A stretch of DNA of 63,854 nucleotides, filler included. It is 16 parts of 16 records of this genome, joined end to end, with 100 filler letters (N's around TTAATTAATTAA, not from the genome) between each part and the next. Parts side by side here need not be neighbours in the genome. Positions count along the whole stretch, not along the records: positions 53,051 to 56,207 come from SRR7504441_19567; 15 more parts are not named here. One strand, written 5' to 3'. How positions within the stretch are numbered: position 1 is the stretch's first letter; the number at the start of each line of letters is the position of its first letter. The notes under the pieces were generated by a model. That model was not told where the DNA came from. It saw nothing but the letters and a program-made list of their open reading frames with translations, and did no database searches. This document shows, piece after piece, positions 101 through 56,307 of this stretch. Position numbers and translations under genes: made by a program.

Positions 101-3100
101 ATGTTGTGCCTGTGGCTGCTTGCTATCGGAGCCGCGGCCGGGTCGATGGTGGATCCACCGATCAGCTCCGGGCAGCCGCCGCTCTACCTGGACGGCAACT
201 GGATTGCCCGAGCCGATTCGGGGCTCCAGATGGCCGCGCGAGTGCCGGGGGACGTCATCACTGACCTGGAACGGGCGGGCCTGGTGAAAGACCCCTACTG
301 GAACACCAGCTGGAGGGATCCCGGGCTCATCTCGATCTGGAACCAGCCCTGGAGCTACAGCAAGAGCTTCGACTGGAACCCCGGCGGCCCCAACAGCCGG
401 GCCGTGCTGGTGCTCGACGGAGTGCAGATGGGGGCGGCCGTCTACCTCAACGGCAGGCCGCTCGGGAACCTAACGGATCAGTTCCTCCGTTACCGGCTGC
501 CGGTGGAGCCGGTGAGCGGAAGGAACACGCTGACGGTTAGGTTTGACCAGTCGATTGACTGCAGCGGCCGGTTCTCTTACTCGTCTCAGATAGGTGGTTT
601 GAGCGGCGGATTCGGGGTCTTAGCCTGTGACAGATTGGGCTCCCAACATGCTCACCTTCGACCCGAACGCGCACAGCGTGGACGCGCAGCGGATCACCGG
701 CCGGGAGACCTTTAGCTTCGGGATCTGGAAGAGTGTCTACCTGCTGGCGGTGCCACAGGCCGCGATTGTCCACTTTGTGCCCCACACCTTCTACGCAGGT
801 GCGACCTACAGCCCTGCGTGCTGACACGCTGCAGGCGGGCACCCGACCTCCATCTAACGGACAGCGCTCACGCCGGGTTCGAGGTCCGGATCCGGCTGAC
901 GGTGTGGGCGCCATCTCAGACCGAGGGCACAGCAGTAGCAATACAGCTGCCCGGCCTCCCCATTGGGCAGTCCTCTGACCGCTCGCTGCCTGGAGTGACC
1001 GTTAATCGGACCGTTACCCTCGAGCCAGGCGACAACATCGTCTCTCTCAACATAACGGCAAACCTGACCAGATGGGTCCAGCTGTGGCATCCAGTCAGGA
1101 ATGGTGCACAGCCGCTGTACAATCTGACAGCTCGGGTGGGGGCGGCCTGCGCGTGGAGGTGGATAGGGTTCAGGCAGCTGGCGTTGGTGACCATTAACGA
1201 CACGGACGCCACGGAAGCATCGGCTGCGGCCGGTCAGGACGGGACGGGAGGCCATTCTATGTTCCTGAGACTGAACGGGGCGGCGGTCTATGCTCGAGGT
1301 GGGAATAAGGTTCCGATGGAGCTGCTCAACGGAAGAATGTCCGGCTTGGCCCTCGAGCGGTTGGTATCGTCCGCCGTCGAGGGCTCGATGAACATGCTGC
1401 GCGTGTGGGGTGGCGGCATTTGGGAGCCACGAGCTTTCTTCGATGCGTGCGACCAGGCTGGGCTCATGATTTATCTGGTGATTGTTAGGGCAGGGCCGGC
1501 TTGACAGCGTGGGTCAGGATATGCAGTTTACTTGGGGCTCTGTTACGGTCCCTGGGGCAGCTTCGGAGACGGTCCATCGAGAGCTTTGGCACCAGCTCCA
1601 ACGGGTTTCGCACCACCCGAGCATTGTTATCCTTGACGGCTGCAACGAGTGTGGCGGGCAAGGGTTGTACGAGAGCTTTGTGATGCCTACAGTTGCAGCC
1701 ATCGATCAGAGCAGACCGATATGGCCGAGTTGCCCGAGCGCCGGTTGGCTTGGAGGCGTCGACAGGCTGTCGAGTCGGCCGAACGGCAAGCGGTTGGTGG
1801 TCGCAACTAGCCCCCCAGGACGCCCTGCAGGCTTCCCCTACCCGCTGGAAGGACACGGTCCGTACATTGGACTAGGCGGAGGGAGCATCCAGGCTGGTCA
1901 CCTCGGCGAAGGCGCCCGCTCAGCAGACGATATCAAGAAGGCCCTGTGCAGCGCCAGCACAATGCCAGCCGCCACCCTGGCGAAGACTGGCCCACAGAAT
2001 CCAGGCTGGTTCCGTAGTGAATTTGGGTGCGTCGCCTGGAGCAGCTTTGAATCGATTTCTGCCCAGCTCCCGATCGAGCAGTGGTCGCTACGATCTGCGT
2101 CGGCGTACTTCCGCAACTGGCCTGTCGACAATGTCATCGAATCGTTCTTTGGCGCTCAAGACTTATCTGCGTGCGGCGAGCGAGCCTTCAGGAGACAGCT
2201 GTACCAGTCAATGCTTGGGCAGATGCTGTTCATGAAGACGGAAATTGAAGGCTGGAGGAGCTCGAATGTGTTTGGAACTCTCATTTGGATGTTGAACGAA
2301 ATCTGGCCCACCGGCGGTTGGGGTTCGCTTGAATACGGCGGAGACACTCCCGGCCAAGTCCGCGGTGGCAGGTGGAAGCCGCTCCACTATGCATTTGCGC
2401 AAGGCCTGTACGCCGATGTGTTTGCCAGCTGCAATCCTTCTGCGGCCTGCTTTGTCAAGAATGACTCGCCATGGCCGTTGGATGGGCTAGTGGTGATCAC
2501 CCTGCTCAATACTCTGACGGGTCGAGCAGCGCGATTGACGCAGACAGGTGTCAGCCTGCGAGCAGGAGCAGGGGTCACTTCTTGGTTTTGTGCTGTGAAC
2601 GCGACCGGAACTCAAAATGCCTCTTTGGGCTACCAAAGGCACAGCAATCAGATCCCTCCTGGTGCGTTCTCCTCGAGCATAAGCGGTCCGTTGCGTGCAT
2701 GTGAGGCGGCATGCAATGCTAGCACGACATGCTTAGGGTTTAGTGTAGTCGCAGCAAGCCAATCAACGTGCTGGCTGTATACGGACGCACCGAGGCTGGT
2801 GACAGCGCCTGGTGACGATTGGTATCAAAAGCCGCACACCGCTCCAATTCCCGGACCTCCATCACCGTGTGTGCAATGGTCAGCAGCCGCAGCATGGCAG
2901 CAAGTGGATTGCGACGGGTCCGGGACCAACTGCTTGCTCACAGTTGAAGTGGTTGAGGCCAGAAGTATGGCGGTTCTAAACGTGAATGTATTACCATTCC
3001 AGCCTCCCAAAAGCATCCAACTGCCACCTGCGTCAGTGGCGGTCAGCATTTTGGGCCGAACTGCGCAGGGAGGCGCCATGCTCTCTGTGGTAGCCAATAT

Positions 3101-3456: not shown

Positions 3457-4611
3457 ATGGCTTGCGAGGGTGATGTGGTGTGCGACCTCGGGAAGCCGAC
3501 TGAGCCGCCGCCCGAGATGGAGTTGCCCGACCTCGCTGCCGGTGCCCCTACTGGGACGGGTAGAAGGCTCAGCCAGTCGGCAGTCGGGCTGCCCCCTGTT
3601 CAAGAGCCCCCGGAGCCCCCGGAGCCTTGCGAGGACGGCCATGCGCCCCCGGTGGGCCCAGAGCCCGAGTTGAGGGCGGGCTGCCGGTGCGTGGGGTGGG
3701 ACCGGCTGGTTGAGCTGGGGCCAGGCTGGCTGGTTGGTATGGGCTGCTGCTGGCTGGATTCCTGGCCAATCGGATCTGGTTGGCCGGTGGGCCGGATACT
3801 GGGCTGACTATCGGCGGGCAGGTGCGTGGCTGGGCTGCCTTCAGATGGGCAAAGCAACTGGAATGCGTCTGATATGGCGGACGACATCACTAACCTGGTG
3901 CTATATGGGCTGATGCTGGCAATAGCCACAGGCATCCATCGGGCCGATCGGGTCGAATACCTCCTAAAAGATTACAAGTGGATCTGGGCGCCAGCGCTGG
4001 TGCTGGCAGTTGGACCAGCCTGGTCGGGGCTCTCTGAGCTCGACGGGGCTGGCAGCCTGTCGGATGGCAACTCCAGTGGAGACACCTCGACAGCTATTTA
4101 TGTGCTGTATGGCTTGGGAGGGCTGGCGGTGCTGGCAGGAGCGGGGTGGCACGGCTGGTTCGCGGTATCCCGATTCGGATGGTGGGAACTCGCTGGGTAC
4201 CTCGGGATGCGCCTAGCTGTTGGGCTGGTGTGGGGTGTGGCATTCATAGTGGCAAGCTCGAATGACAGTGTGATCCACGCGCACCACTGGTGGATTTGTT
4301 GGTACGTGGCGCTGTTTGCCAAATGGGACCACTGGCTGTCGGTGGTCTGCCTTTCACTGCTAATCGGCGTGTTCCTACAGGGCGTCGGTGTCTACAATTT
4401 TGACCCGCTGTGGCGAGAGTCGACCTGCTGGCGCTTTGGCACCGGTGGAGACATGTACGAGACCTCCGTCTCGCCCAACGACCCCAGCAAGGATTGGTTG
4501 GGTGTGACCAGCTTCCACTGCTCGTTTGATGCTAACCCGGCGCACGTGTGTCTTGATGGAAGTAAGACGATCTCCGATATCAGCTGCACTTGGTCTTACC
4601 CCGCAAGATGA
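3457..4611 (+). CDS. Multi-pass membrane protein of unknown function
   Basis: Two short GT-AG introns between about 3687 and 3821 join ORF 3457 to ORF 3826 in frame (AGCR-LAGWYGLLLAGFLANRIW-CVAGLPS). About 7 hydrophobic segments and a HAHHW motif. Confidence 0.65.
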
Positions 4612-21817: not shown

Positions 21818-24800
21818 ATGCAAGGCGCCAAGGTGCGTGCCCTGGCCGTCCGCCGGCCCCGGGCTCAGGCGGTGTCAGTTCTCGATCCGGCCGTATCAGC
21901 ACAGTTCGAATATGAACCAGACCGGGGCTATCGAGACCTGGAGCAGCCTGGATTCGGCGATCACCCAGATCCACGAGCAGAACGCCAGCCACCTCAGCTT
22001 CGAGGAGTTGTACAGGCTCGAGGCGCCGCTGCACCGGGCGGCTTACCAGTGTGCTCAGGAAGGCGTACAATATGGTGCTGTACAAGCACGGGGGCATCCT
22101 ATACAGCAAGCTGGTGGAGAAGGTTCGCCGCCCAGCCTGGCCCGGCGGGGCGAGCCGGGGAGCGCAGGTGTCTGGCCAGTGCTGCGAGACAGCCTCGCGG
22201 CTGGCGGGGGAGGAGCGCTCGCAGCTGCTGCACGCCATTATCGACAGATGGTCCCCGGGCTGCCGCAGGCCGAGCCGACCGCTGAATCAGGTCGGACCAC
22301 AAGCTGTCGATGGGGATGATTAGGGACATACTGATGTATATGGTGTCTGCTGCGGCGCCGCTGCGCGCCAGCAGGGGGGTAGGACCGGACGTACGTGCCC
22401 AAGGAGAAGCTGCAGCCAGTGTACGACAAGGGGCTGGCGCTCTGGCTCGAGCACGTTCTGCACGCCCAGGGGATCAAGGCTGCAGCTCTGGACGAAGTGC
22501 TCAGCTGCATCAGTCGGTACGGTCACGGGTCGCGACTCGGGACTCAGGCTGTCGTGGCTGCAGGGAGCGGCAGAGCGAGGACGTGGATCGGGCGGTTCTC
22601 CGGAAGTTTACGCAGATGTACTGCGAGATCAGCAAGCAGGTAGCTGCGCGGGCGGCGCGCTAGGCCGAGCGAGGGGCAGGCTTACATTGCTGACTTTGAG
22701 CAGCCCATGCTCTCAGCGACCAGAATCCATTATAAAGCCGCGTCCGCCGAGTTCATTAGCACCAACAGTATCACAGACTACCTCACAAAGGCCCAGGCGT
22801 GGATCGAGAACGAAGGCAAGCGCGCTGATAGCTATCTCGATCCGTCGACTAAGCCCAAGCTGCTCACTGCGCTGAACGAGGAGGTCGGCGCAGGGGTGTG
22901 CCCCCCGGGCCGACGGTGTGGACGCAGGTGCTGCTGCATCACCTGCCCGAGATGCTCACCAACGACCAATCGGTCCGCTCTCGCCTGGCCAGCCTGCGAC
23001 TAGGGATGCAGGGTTGCATCCCAATGCTACGTGATGAAAAGTGGCAAGATCTAGGCCGCCTGTATTCGATGTTGCAGTCGATCAAGGTGCTGTGCATTTG
23101 GGCGTTAGCTTGACTTGGGACCAGGAGCTTGGCGTGGTGGAGAAACTTGCAGACACGGTTTACAAATACATTGATGAGTGCGCTGCTTGGGCCCCCAGAG
23201 GCTAACTGGTGCGCTGCAGTGCCGGGATGCAATTCGTGGCAGACACAAGCAAGACTGCCGACGCTGTGGTCTATATAGACGGGCTGGTCCACATGAAGAC
23301 CAAGTACACTCTGCTGGTGAGTGAGCAATTCAAGGAGGATCCGCTGATGGTTAAAATCCTCAACTCGGCTTTCGAGCACTTTGTGAACAGCAATCCTCGG
23401 TCGCCCGAGTTCCTGTCTCTGTATATGGACGAGAAGATGCGCAAGGGGCTGGGCGGTGCGCAGCTCGGGTCGGGCGGGACTGAGTGTGGCCAGGCATGAA
23501 CGACGACGAGGTCGAGAATGTGCTGAACCAGGCGCTAGTCTTCTTTCGCTACCTGCAGGAGAAGGACTTGTTTGAACGGTACTACAAGCAGCACCTGGCC
23601 AGGCGGCTGCTGGGCGGCAAGACCGAGGACGACGAGCACGAGTCTTGCTTCCTGCGCAAGCTGAAGCAAGAGTGTGGGGTGCAATTCACCTCGAAATTGG
23701 AGGGTATGTTCCAGGACACCCGGGCGACCCACGACTTAGTGGCCGAGTTCAAAGAGCATGTGGCGCACACTCCGGACTCGCAGCGCCAGATGTGGGGAAT
23801 AGAGCTCAACGTGAACGTGATCACCACGAGCTTCTGGCCCACGCAGAATGTGGAATCACTTCCGCTGCCACCAGCAGTGCAGTCAGCGTGTGAGGTGTTT
23901 AAGGCATTTTACTTGGGGAAGCACAACACACGGAAGCTCGAGTTCCAGACGCACATGGGGCACGTAGACCTACGAGTGCACATGCCAAAGAAGCGGTGGC
24001 CCACAGGCAGCGCGCGGCTTGTGAGTCAGTCGGGCAGGTACAACTTAAACGTGCCTGTGAATATGATGGTGATTCTAATGCTGTTCAACACAGTCGATGA
24101 GCTAGGCTACAAGGAAATAGCGGCAGCCACCCGGATCCCCAAGTGACGGATTGCTCCTACTGTTAGACTGATTGAGCACGACAGGACTGATTTGGACCGG
24201 GCGTTGCTTTCGCTCTCGCTAGGCAAGGTACCAACCCACTGCCTAGGCTGGAGCCTGACCTTTGTGCAGCTGAAGATCTTACTCAAGACTCCTAAAGAGA
24301 AGACAATCGGGGAGAATGATACGTTTGGCTTCAACAAGAACTTTTCGGCACCGCACACAAAACTCAAAATACAGGTATTGGCTCGCTAGGGCTGTTGAGA
24401 TAGGCCACCATTGCAGGCATCCAAGTCCTCAGTTGGGGAACGGGACCCAGTGGTGACACGTAATGCAATCATCGAGGACCGCAAGCACGAGGTCGCTAGC
24501 CTGCATGGCCCTCAGCCGACCGTGGTTGCGTGTAGATTGATGCTGCAATCGTGCGTATTATGAAGGCCCGCAAGGAAATGCAGGTGCTCCGTTGTTATGA
24601 TAGTGTCATGGCCAGCTCGTAACCGTGCTCGCTCTTGTGCAGCACAATCAACTCACCAGCGAAGCAATCATAGTGTTAACATCACGGTTCAAGGCTGATC
24701 CGAGGGATATCAAAAAGCGCATCGAGGTGCGGCCTGTGAAGTCGTGTGTTGTTTTCACTGCTTTGTGCGTGTCAGAATCTAATTGAACGAGAGTTCTTAG

Positions 24801-47103: not shown

Positions 47104-47329
47104 GCCACTCTAGATCTACATGTACCTGTAATGTTACAGGTTGGACTGGCGTAAAATTGCTTTTTCTTGTGGCCGCCCGCGACGGGGTAGCGACGGGGAA
47201 GGACATGTAACGACGGCGACCAGGTGCGGGAAATCGGGTCGGATCTAGATCTTATAATTGCATGTAGTACTTGCCAAGGTATCGAGCGCCGTGGGTTGTA
47301 AAGTAAAGACTAAAGAGCGTTATACATGT

Positions 47330-47381
47330 AACAGAAATATAACAGAAATACAACAGAAATACAACAGAAATACAACAGAAA
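47330..47381 (+). repeat. 11-bp tandem repeat AACAGAAATA(C/T), about 4.5 copies
   Basis: Directly visible between convergent genes. Confidence 0.9.
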
Positions 47382-47436
47382 ATGTATAAATTATGTACAT
47401 GAAGTCCTACATGTAAATTCGTGTGTGTGCGCTGGA

Positions 47437-53050: not shown

Positions 53051-56000
53051 GCCCCCCCCCCCCCCCCCTCAATAACTAGCTCGCCCGCACCCCAGCGGTC
53101 AGGACACGTTTGGCGCCTCGCCCGCCGAGCCGCCGGACCGGTCACCTGGACCGGCCGTACTCAGCAGCAACCACTCAGTGCTGTCCGTTGAGCAGGTACT
53201 CGACTCGCCGCCGCCGGAGCTGGGGGGACGTGATGGTCATGATCCTTGCCCTGCTCGGTCCCGCCCCCCGCACCCTGACCGCCGCCAGCCTACCGGCAGA
53301 TCTACTGGCCTCGCTGGCGTTCGCGATCGGGCGGGCGGCCACCGGCTCGGGCCCCAGCTGCGCGGCCCAGGGGTTTGTGATCCAGACCTTCGCGCTGAGC
53401 ACGGCGCGCGCCTCGATTGGGTGCAGCGTTACCCCCCGCGGCAGGTGCTCTGGACCACCTGCATCTCGGCTAACCTTTTCGGATGGGTCTGCCTGGTGCC
53501 GTGTCCGTTAAATCCGTTGAAATCCGTTGGGTGGACAGCGCCAGCCCGAGCAGCGGCTCCGGCGGATGCTGCCTTGGTACCTCATAGTCTCTATAGGCCT
53601 TCCGTTAGGGTTCGCGATTCTAGCCGCCGGGTGCGTGTGTCCGTTGGGAGGTTCCGTTGGAACTGTGCCGTTGGGGCAGGTATGACTTGTATGAGGATTC
53701 GATTCTCTGGTGCTGGCTCGGCGGGACCGGCTGGCAGTTCGGGCTGTTCTACGTCTGGGTGGCCACCAGCCCAACAGACTTAATATTATTAATATTAATC
53801 ATTAACGGACTTACAATAGACAGGTGCTGCTCTCCTGGCTGACAGTTGTGGTGCTGGTGCTCTTCGTCCGAGGCCAAATCCGTAAACGCCGCCGACTGGC
53901 CGCCGGATCCGACGCTGACGCTGATCGGTACACGCCGCTGTATATATACAATGTTAGTCCAGCCCGACTGTATTTTAACGGAAATTACAGCCCGGTGCTG
54001 GCTCGGCTGCAGCAGTATGTGGCCAGTTTCTTGATCATATGGGCAGTTGGCCTGACCAACCGCGCGGTGCCATTGTCTGCGCGGGGCGCCGGTCACGAGG
54101 CCGTTGTCAGGTGACGGCCGCTGCAGGGCCGCAGTTCTGGTTAATGCTGCTGCACGTGCTGTTCGTCCCTTCCCAGGGACTGGTCAATGCGCTTATTTAC
54201 GGTGTCCGTTGGTGAGATTTCCGTTGAGCAACGGTGCAGGCTCCTTGCTGCAGAGGCTGCTGGCTAGTGCGGGCTGCTTGGAGTCTGTACCAGCGCAGCA
54301 GAGCGAGCCAGGTGTGTGTGGGGGGGGGGGGGGGGCTGAAGGGCGGCAGAGTGGCAGCCGCTTCGGCCGGCGGAGGCGGCGGGGGGGGGACGCGTCTCAG
54401 TGAAGGTGCGAGCTTACGTTCTTAAATGGCTGTTAGTATTGCATCTGGCTGCAGGCAGCCCCGCGCTGCTAGCACTACCAGAGTCTAGCATCACACTGTT
54501 TGGTCAGGTCTGGTCTGGCACCTTCAACATGGGCTCGGAGCCCGCAGTTAGCGCCGAGTTTCTGCCTCTTGGGGCTCAACTCTACTTCCTTGCAGTCCAG
54601 GCGCTGCCCAATAACCGACACTGTCCTATCTGAGTGAGGCACCCCGCAGGAGTGCATGGACGTGGAGCAGATATGTCAGCTGGTCAGAGCACGGCTGCAA
54701 GGTGGCAGCCACATACAGCGACTGCAAGGTGATTGTGCTGGCGTAGGTCAGTTTAAAGAGTTCCGAGCTGTCGAAGGCTCCATTAGACTCTACAACGGGT
54801 GCCTGCCTGATAGAGGGCCTGTCACACGCTCCGATTAGGTTCATAGCTCTGCTCTGCTGGGCGAGTCAAGAGCTCATCGACTCCGGACAAATCTCTCTCA
54901 AAGATGTAACCCCAATAATACTAACAACAGCCACAAGCCCGGGGGCGCAGGATGTAGCCAGGAGCGCCGTCGAGTGCGGAGTCAACCTCGGGGTCAAGAG
55001 AGCTTTCAATAAAGGGGCAGTGGCGATGCGCTTCGCGGTGGGAGCGAGTTCGCTGGCAGTGGTTGGATGCCACCTCACATCTGACTCCGACGGCAAGAGC
55101 AAGGCTGGGGATACGGGTGCACAGGGCTGATCGGTTCGCAGGTGGAGGCTCGTCGAAGTGATTTGAGCAAAATTGTGTCAGAGCTGCAGTTAGATTACGA
55201 CGGCAATGGGGTTGTGGGCGACTTCACGCTCACGCAGCACCACTGTATCCTGCTGGGCGATTTAAACTTTCGAGTGGTGTCACGCACCTTCTTAATTAGG
55301 AAATATCTCCGGATGTGTGACACTGTAGTGCTGGTGCAGGGGCTGCCTCCGGAGGCGGCACTCGATCTGATTTCGAGGCAGCGCTGGGCGACGCTGCTCG
55401 AACACGACGAGCTCTCGCAAGACTTGTCGAGCGGCGCGGTGTCACACCTTCCTAATTGGGAAACATGTTAACGTCTTCCTGATTAGGGCATTCCAGGTGC
55501 TGCACGGATGGGAAGAAGATCCGATCAGGTGAGTCGGAGGGCGGATGTTTGCTGATGCCGGTGGCAGCTTCGCTCCCAGCTATCGGCTGGTTAAAGGCAG
55601 GACCGTAGACCCTATGGGCGCAGGTGTGACACCTTCCTAATTAGGAGATTGTATAGCTTAACACCTTCCTAATTAGGGCATAGCTTAACGCCTACGGGCG
55701 CAGACACACCGTCGGCTGAACAGCTCGAGCGCCGGTGCTACACGACAGAGGTGCGTGTGACAAGCCCGATGCTGTTGAGTCTCCAAAGGTCGGAAGCGCC
55801 ACGGGGAAGCGATCGAGCCGGACGCCTTCGTATACTGACAGAGTAACTGACAATTTCTATTTTCGGCACAGTGCGTGGGATAGGTTTTGTATCGGTCGCT
55901 GCCGGATCTGACGGGCGGTCTGGCCTGCCTGGAATATGGCGCAAGCCCGATGATCACGTCGAGTGACCACTTCCCGGTGAGGCTTGTACTTTAAGTGCTA

Positions 56001-56207
56001 GTACAGGTTCTGCTGTATAGTAGTACTGCTGCTGTGCTGACTGGCCGCAGGTGGGCGCGTTGTTTGAATGCAGCAGCGCGTTGGTGAGGCCTGCTCTGAT
56101 GGCTCAAGTGTCCATCAGACTGTCGAGCCTCACTCAACATGAGACTGCAGACCAGCCAGAGACCGTGCAGGCGAGCCGCATAGCTTAACACCTTCCCGAT
56201 TAGGAGA
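53051..56207 (+). CDS. cAMP-receptor-like (Dicty_CAR/Git3-type) GPCR fused to an inositol polyphosphate 5-phosphatase; partial at both ends
   Basis: GPCR part: DLLAS, CAAQGFVIQTF, LWTTCIS, WCWL, LFYVW, RLQQYV..FLIIW, SQGLVNALIYG. Phosphatase part: GTFNM, AVQE, NKGAV, VGCHL, GDLNFR, FAPSYR, PSYTDRVL, SDHFPV. No stop codon between them after splicing. Confidence 0.85.
55277..56207 (+). mobile_element. Introner-like repeat family, core (GTGT[C/G])ACACCTTCCTAATTAGG, in introns 55277-55339, 55439-55496, 55624-55703 and at the contig end 56178-56207
   Basis: Shared sequence among different introns of one gene, palindromic core CCTAATTAGG, and a 13-nt flanking direct repeat at one copy. Confidence 0.7.
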
Positions 56208-56307
56208 NNNNNNNNNNNNNNNNNNNNNNNNNNNNNNNNNNNNNNNNNNNNTTAATTAATTAANNNNNNNNNNNNNNNNNNNNNNNNNNNNNNNNNNNNN
56301 NNNNNNN

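Follow-up and report, generated by a model that had tools for sequence, protein, structure and literature searches.

The inositol polyphosphate 5-phosphatase gene found in the stretch of DNA analysed here (63,854 bases; the window) contains a short repeat that appears to have been copied to at least three, and perhaps five, sites within 1.4 kb, and at those sites the repeat would itself be the intron. Three introns of this gene, called A, B and C below, share the repeat sequence; it stands in register with the intron ends, intron C carries a duplication, and the exon joins are gapless. We put the chances at about even that at least one intron of the gene, and probably three, was built by an introner-like repeat that is small and probably local. 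Each copy would bring its own splice signals, namely a GTGTSAC donor, a branch-like motif and TAG/G. At intron C, a 67-nucleotide (nt) copy would have been inserted into coding sequence with duplication of a 13-nt target, the second copy of which would give the acceptor AG, so that splicing would restore the original reading frame in the manner of an introner.

The window consists of 16 contigs of 3-5 kb joined via N44-TTAATTAATTAA-N44 linkers and, given these contigs and artificial linkers, is a metagenome bin of a eukaryote and not a single chromosome. Its G+C content runs from 51 to 69%, and its long open reading frames (ORFs) encode eukaryotic domains (cullin, P4-ATPase, kelch/ankyrin, JAB/MPN and Dus); the host is an uncultured marine protist. 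The repeat and the phosphatase gene both lie on contig 53051-56207 (SRR7504441_19567). For the gene model, three reading frames were inspected and exons were joined by coordinates; the spliced model has 377 codons and is stop-free. Exon-bearing ORFs of the gene are matched by Pfam Exo_endo_phos2, and the closest solved structures for one exon are SHIP2 and SHIP1 (PDB).

54490..56185, + strand: coding region of the inositol polyphosphate 5-phosphatase catalytic domain, 12 exons and 11 introns in the gene model
Introns 1-11, + strand: 54601-54649 (49 nt), 54799-54838 (40 nt), 54906-54950 (45 nt), 55104-55141 (38 nt), 55277-55339 (63 nt), 55439-55496 (58 nt), 55529-55567 (39 nt), 55624-55703 (80 nt), 55751-55788 (38 nt), 55843-55883 (41 nt), 55977-56050 (74 nt)

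Structure of the repeat and of introns A, B and C

The 17-mer ACACCTTCCTAATTAGG is present as two exact copies, four copies with 1-3 mismatches and a seventh, decayed one, all on the coding strand between 54820 and 56204. Allowing up to three mismatches, CCTTCCTAATTAGG has nine matches against 2.57 expected, all of them in 55287-56204, and none of 100 shuffles reaches nine. A profile built from the seven units retrieves only those seven in the whole window (E 1.7e-6 to 6e-3), its best match beyond the phosphatase contig having an E of 3.1, and in a repeat search of the whole window the ACACCTTCCTAATTAGG repeat was the only dispersed family other than low-complexity sequence. The repeat units measure ~27-32 nt, and the usual form is one of two units, ~55-67 nt in total. 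That the core is palindromic, as the original prediction had it, was borne out by a direct check of the sequence.

55284..55300, + strand: unit A1, two mismatches to ACACCTTCCTAATTAGG
55444..55460, + strand: unit B1, one mismatch to ACACCTTCCTAATTAGG
55471..55487, + strand: unit B2, three mismatches to ACACCTTCCTAATTAGG
55629..55645, + strand: unit C1, exact ACACCTTCCTAATTAGG
55661..55677, + strand: unit C2, exact ACACCTTCCTAATTAGG
56178..56207, + strand: contig-end copy, made up of the spacer GCATAGCTTA as in intron C and then a unit at 56188-56204 (two mismatches)
54820..54839, + strand: decayed unit TGTCACACGCTCCGATTAGG, profile E 0.006

A fourth copy had been predicted exactly at the contig break; the unit at 56188-56204 does end three bases before the run of N at 56208, but the break itself is an assembly end. 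There are two readings of this copy: it could belong to an intron whose GC donor is at 56171, or it could follow a TAG stop. The decayed unit, which had been held to supply the acceptor of intron 2, does so in the gene model, where its TAG is the acceptor of intron 54799-54838 and the boundaries of that intron are set solely by frame continuity.

55277..55339, + strand: intron A (intron 5), 63 nt, phase 0, in frame and stop-free; unit A1, an inverted copy of its own 5' end and a 16-nt tail
55277..55286, + strand: left arm GTGTCACGCA of the inverted repeat of intron A, 9/10 complementary to the right arm TGTGTGACAC at 55314-55323
55439..55496, + strand: intron B (intron 6), 58 nt, phase 0; two-unit element (B1, B2) followed by TCCAG; gapless against P0124, a protein fragment of a relative
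55624..55703, + strand: intron C (intron 8), 80 nt, phase 1; C1 and C2 (32 nt apart), AGCTTAACG and the second copy of the 13-nt duplication
55611..55623, + strand: exon-side copy CCTATGGGCGCAG of the direct repeat at intron C; the intron-side copy CCTACGGGCGCAG, at 55691-55703, provides the acceptor AG

All three introns open with GTGT(C/G)AC, followed directly by the core, and hold one, two and two copies of the repeat in A, B and C, much as had been described; the unit starts at intron base +1 in each of the three. Introns B and C are identical at 48 of 55 aligned bases (87%) from base 1, an alignment spanning the first 60 nt of intron C, and the similarity stops 5 nt short of the end of B and 22 nt short of the end of C, the last 13 nt of which are the duplication. 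Their alignment score is 62, as against a best of 19 for an intron without a clear unit compared with any other intron. The remainder that is not repeat comes to 16 nt in intron A and 5 nt in intron B. Taken together, the start at base +1 on three occasions, the acceptor end on one and these two short remainders argue that the repeat constitutes the introns instead of sitting inside them. The inverted repeat reported within intron A is real; its arms bound 47 nt and form a 12-bp stem in the predicted fold. Terminal inverted repeats, a trait of TIR-type introner families, are absent from the ends of introns B and C. An independent seawater-metagenome contig of 216 nt covers 55638-55852, including 55638-55703 of intron C, with one difference.

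Intron size, exon joins and splice signals

The cullin gene, on another contig (21930-24841), has 11 introns or more, measuring 39-51 nt and in five cases exactly 42 nt; these were placed by means of full-length cullin proteins at 78% identity, and five of the 16 intervals were dropped as ambiguous or low-scoring. The motif-free introns of the phosphatase gene measure 49, 40, 45, 38, 39, 38 and 41 nt, plus one of 74 nt, so that 18 of the 19 motif-free introns of the two genes fall within 38-51 nt, the exception being intron 11 of the phosphatase gene. Introns A, B and C, at 63, 58 and 80 nt, are clearly long against that range, and the earlier description of the motif introns as longer than usual thus agrees with these counts (58-80 nt against 38-51 nt in 18 of 19 others). 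The closest cullin proteins are 78-79% identical and the next best at most 51%, which suggests that the host belongs to a poorly sampled lineage.

An exhaustive protein search returned five matches, P0121-P0125, of which P0121, P0122 and P0125 are long repetitive proteins that were judged spurious on inspection of their sequences; word-index protein searches with the ORF spanning intron A gave no matches, at near or at longer lengths. P0124, 122 residues long, shares 61 of 120 residues (51%) with the spliced model. The lone gap in this alignment is of one residue and lies within exon 5, while the exons meet without a gap at introns 4, 5 (A), 6 (B), 7 and 8 (C), which argues that the predicted exon joins at introns 4-8 are correct. 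In the tblastn alignment, gaps of exactly 21 residues and of 13 residues stand for intron A (63 nt) and intron 7, respectively. P0124 runs unbroken across five intron positions, though it may come from a transcript or from intron-poor DNA; this protein of a relative lends indirect support to the splicing of introns A, B and C. P0123, a public protein of 68 residues, matches 55313-55444 at 100% identity, a span that runs from the 3' part of intron A through the whole of exon 6 to base six of intron B; the 24 residues that follow that base match nothing anywhere in the window. It may represent an allele with a different insert at the intron B site, or a chimeric contig.

Against shuffled sequences, the predicted folding of introns A, B and C gives z values of -2.4, -2.2 and -2.3, compared with -0.3 to +1.3 for five other introns (intron A folds at -20.3 kcal/mol, z -2.43; intron B has z -2.15). 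In B and C the two palindromic units are predicted to pair together as a hairpin, and in A the 5' end to pair with its own inverted copy. Written as RNA, the unit reads GU...CUAAU...UAG/G, with a donor first, then a branch-like motif and last an acceptor-like end; the core ACCTTCCTAATTAGG includes the branch-site-like CTAAT/CTGAT and TAG/G, and the CCTGAT of unit B2 matches the CTGAY that in introns 4, 7 and 11 precedes the AG by 11-17 nt. The unit motifs may accordingly be candidates for splice signals, with B2 as a putative branch site. An Rfam search of the phosphatase contig gave two matches to microRNA models, both below threshold. GC donors are required for frame in introns 54601-54649 (CAG/GCGCTG) and 55104-55141 (AAG/GCTGGG), and cullin intron 22636-22679 is likewise best fitted with a GC donor.

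Origin of the introns

Exon 8 and intron C end in 13-nt stretches that are identical at 12 positions, and the intron-side copy furnishes the AG, just as the original prediction had stated; the same comparison of exon end with intron end gives at most 7/13 in 21 other real pairs, and 462 mismatched exon/intron control pairs give at most 10/13. This duplication is direct evidence of insertion at intron C. When the 67-nt insert and one copy of the duplication are removed, the sequence ...VDPMGA/DTPS... is restored, alignable with P0124, and the filler in intron C is 87% identical to intron B, 185 nt upstream. A short target repeat flanking filler DNA, as left by staggered-break repair, is present at intron C, and it is only at intron C that a target-site duplication supplies one splice site. 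That the copies were inserted rather than inherited, and what enzyme was responsible, we infer.

By one route, a staggered break would have been repaired by fill-in, with a nearby copy serving as the patch; by another, a low-copy element would have hopped locally. Such local copying or hopping is needed to explain five copies within 1.4 kb, and these two routes are slightly favoured over a large transposase-driven family; local copying is as likely as transposition. A repeat that is local only seems less likely than not, and a genome-wide family slightly less likely still, with the remaining weight on the rival explanations taken up below. Introner DNA transposons are given duplications of 3-9 bp (PMC9860276) and dinoflagellate introners of 4 or 8 nt (bioRxiv 10.1101/2020.10.14.339549), in the portions of these sources drawn on here. 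The 13-nt duplication fits break repair at least as well as introner transposition, and suits staggered-break fill-in or target-primed insertion. We know of no cut-and-paste superfamily that gives so long a duplication.

A number of points weigh against the repeat having built these introns. The 13-nt duplication exceeds the published introner transposon sizes, and the comparison of exon end with intron end gives just 3/13 for intron A and for intron B, which lack a flanking duplication. Part of the match at intron C is to be expected, GCGCAG endings being frequent at acceptors here; its upstream part, CCTA(T/C)GG, is not expected from common acceptor endings. Intron A resembles B and C over its first ~27 nt only, and the intron positions could be old. 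A search of sequencing runs found one DNA run (0.06 share of words) and no RNA run among those listed, and the 216-nt contig, which is from that DNA run, gave no joints and no variants. Among the metagenome loci listed for the 17-mer, none has the flanks of the window and none is from the host. Finally, the other 15 contigs (~57 kb, including the 11 checked cullin introns) hold zero copies of the repeat. The original prediction had itself named confinement of the motif to this gene as a sign against a family, and within 64 kb no copy lies beyond it; its proposal of an intron-generating element keeps its footing in the register, in the two-unit copies in B and C and in the duplication at intron C, but not in any spread between genes. 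The empty 57 kb is weak evidence against a family, since such a length would also stay empty if a genome of tens of Mb held a few hundred copies.

The best of the rivals, still unlikely in our view, is that the introns are old and that a hairpin-forming palindromic minisatellite spread in them later via slippage, unequal exchange or gene conversion, creating no intron. The repeat is indeed confined to one gene, its units are tandem (periods of 27 and 32 nt) and diverged (0-3 mismatches in 17), introns A and B lack duplications, and the gene is intron-dense throughout, so that the positions are inconspicuous; moreover, microsatellites and secondary insertions are the usual false positives according to the relevant part of Gozashti et al. 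(PMC9860276). Random landing in introns of ~40 nt, however, would not place the unit at base +1 in three of three and at the acceptor end in a fourth, and without the repeat A or B would be an unworkable intron of 5-16 nt. Nor does slippage within an intron account for the 13 nt duplicated beside intron C, which are exon sequence. An old intron with a minisatellite should have the repeat in its interior, a remainder of normal size and splice sites of its own, and A, B and C do not have this make-up; the satellite alternative that the original prediction had allowed for fits the features less well than does an element that is itself the intron.

The motif might instead be a selected site for protein binding or splicing control, iteron-like and not mobile, and repeated because the gene needs it, which we consider improbable. 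What speaks for it is the behaviour of the 15-nt core in a viral collection, where it has matches at 24 loci. Twenty of these are single matches, and since two control 15-mers have single matches at 82 and 73 loci, and no arrays, the single matches to the core are attributed to chance. Unlike the controls, the core ACCTTCCTAATTAGG also forms tandem arrays, at a period of 20-28 nt and with unrelated spacers, on two related giant-virus contigs (98 and 290 kb).

L136:2497-2640 and 3900-4064: virus arrays, first contig
L140:1339-1380 and 2501-2575: virus arrays, second contig

The virus arrays flank a protein-kinase-like gene on both sides, in opposite orientation to each other and beginning directly after stop codons, and a third array, with a spacer different again, lies at metagenome locus L116; the units of the phosphatase gene likewise keep the core and vary the spacer, at a period of 27-32 nt. 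Core conservation with variable spacers, at gene ends in the arrays, is what a binding site would give. The motif is not generally enriched, however, its single matches being fewer than those of the controls; the two array-bearing virus contigs are related and count as one event; a literature search for CCTAATTAGG, judged by titles and the openings of abstracts, gave no binding protein; and the 13-nt duplication would be left unexplained. The likeness between giant-virus and protist cores could mean that they share a recognition site, or it could be down to chance in so large a database, and with effectively two independent arrays the odds for the former are low. It is more speculative again, and very improbable, that the 15-17-nt core is the iteron of a mobile system common to giant viruses and this protist, the repeat being virus-delivered or moved by virus machinery. 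Giant viruses have been proposed to carry introners between lineages (PMC12130899, in the part consulted), and the iteron reading, if true, would provide a sequence-level link for that proposal.

An assembly artefact, in which repeat-induced mis-joins or chimeric reads in a low-coverage bin made the copies, is hardly credible. In its favour, the end of the contig falls within a repeat copy, the opening 34 nt of the contig match 54303-54336 in inverted orientation, and P0123, identical as far as base six of intron B, is unrelated from there on. Against it, 55638-55852 recurs with one difference in the contig from an independent run, the 3' part of intron A and exon 6 are exact in P0123, and excision of the three segments restores a frame gaplessly alignable to the relative, which random mis-joins would not do.

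Returning to an introner-like origin, Huff et al. 2016 (cited in PMC7789003) are said, beside Gozashti et al., to deal with introners of aquatic protists. What follows on published systems concerns the portions of the papers cited. Introners carry one splice site on the element and take the other from the duplicated target (PMC9860276; bioRxiv 10.1101/2020.10.14.339549). By the working definition, a family comprises at least four introns from unrelated genes that resemble one another to near both boundaries and are not accounted for by paralogy, and published families, commonest in aquatic protists, can have a median of only 30 nt or as few as 5 copies (PMC9860276). The phosphatase gene offers three certain introns, a decayed copy and a contig-end copy, all in the one gene, where a published family would have at least four introns in different genes.

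Like the introners of Micromonas, Aureococcus and the TARA bins (PMC9860276), the present repeat gives near-identical whole introns at unrelated positions, is short and non-coding and has a marine protist as host, and at intron C it joins an element-borne splice site to one from a target duplication. Unlike the introners of aquatic protists in that source, it is known from 3-5 copies in one gene, its duplication is of 13 nt instead of 3-9 and occurs at one of three introns, and the element is an internal tandem of palindromic units. The introner-like elements of fungi (Collemare et al. 2013, PMC3609843) resemble it in being longer than regular introns, with stable predicted structure, and in decaying towards ordinary introns, with which the decayed copy in intron 2 may be compared; those elements number hundreds of copies genome-wide, whereas here copies are known from one gene. 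The introner elements of Amoebophrya (Farhat et al. 2021, PMC7789003), again from a marine protist, share with it the hairpin-forming inverted repeats inside the intron, the direct repeats overlapping boundaries and some non-GT donors in the same genome. There, however, the inverted repeats join both intron ends, the direct repeats are of 3-5 nt and the splice sites are non-canonical, while A, B and C are GT-AG introns and end-like inverted repeats are seen in intron A only. In Daphnia, intron gain with short flanking repeats has been linked to repair (PMC3443670); as at intron C, short direct repeats arise from staggered-break fill-in and the filler can be copied from elsewhere, but the Daphnia introns are mutually unrelated, whereas the insert here is a copy of the neighbouring intron.

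Clean footprints of the birth of a spliceosomal intron are rare, and intron C keeps the insert, its probable source 185 nt away and the target turned acceptor. If the repeat belongs to a family spread through the genome, few known introners would be shorter, and its host lineage has introns of ~42 nt; if it is local, it would record intron gain by copying of a neighbouring intron at a staggered break, a route that has been proposed but for which donor and product can rarely both still be recognised. In both cases the finding lends itself to testing and involves no new principle.

The 17-mer in other metagenomes and minor observations

A metagenome scan for the exact 17-mer gave at least 123 loci (L001-L123). 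At no fewer than 26 of them it lies at the centre of a ~245-bp palindromic miniature inverted-repeat transposable element (MITE; ends CACTGGTGGCATGAGG...), and at 32 or more it lies 27-43 nt inside a Tc1/mariner-like inverted-repeat end, TACGGAGGTCGCTAAC...ACACCTTCCTAATTAGG (TACGGAGGTCGCTAACAAAAGTTCTT...), in both cases on AT-rich contigs from other organisms; the remaining matches listed are small groups and singletons. The MITE and Tc1/mariner-like loci were rejected as evidence for a family: the 17-mer was a requirement of the search, so its presence has no bearing on relatedness. Pairs of the 17-mer ~310 bp apart in inverted orientation also resemble MITEs. Loci L061, L069 and L100 have the longer string GGAACACCTTCCTAATTAGGATCT in common, and a diverged flanking repeat is common to three of these loci. 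At L051, on an unrelated contig of 49% G+C, the 17-mer at 1501-1517 lies ~340 nt downstream of an Exo_endo_phos2 (5-phosphatase family) ORF at 1858-3015 (- strand), which is probably a coincidence.

Upstream of the phosphatase domain, ORFs at 53806-54215 resemble the final membrane helices of a receptor and have a weak, sub-threshold match to GPR_Gpa2_C (E 0.0038); these two features suggest a possible receptor-phosphatase fusion gene. The contig at 53051-56207 opens with C17, and its first 34 nt (53051-53084) are a 79% inverted match to the G16-containing 54303-54336, 1.2 kb downstream. The match could stem from folding back during assembly or be a genuine inverted repeat. Elsewhere in the window, a tandem repeat of about six copies of the 11-nt unit AACAGAAATAC occupies 47319-47384.

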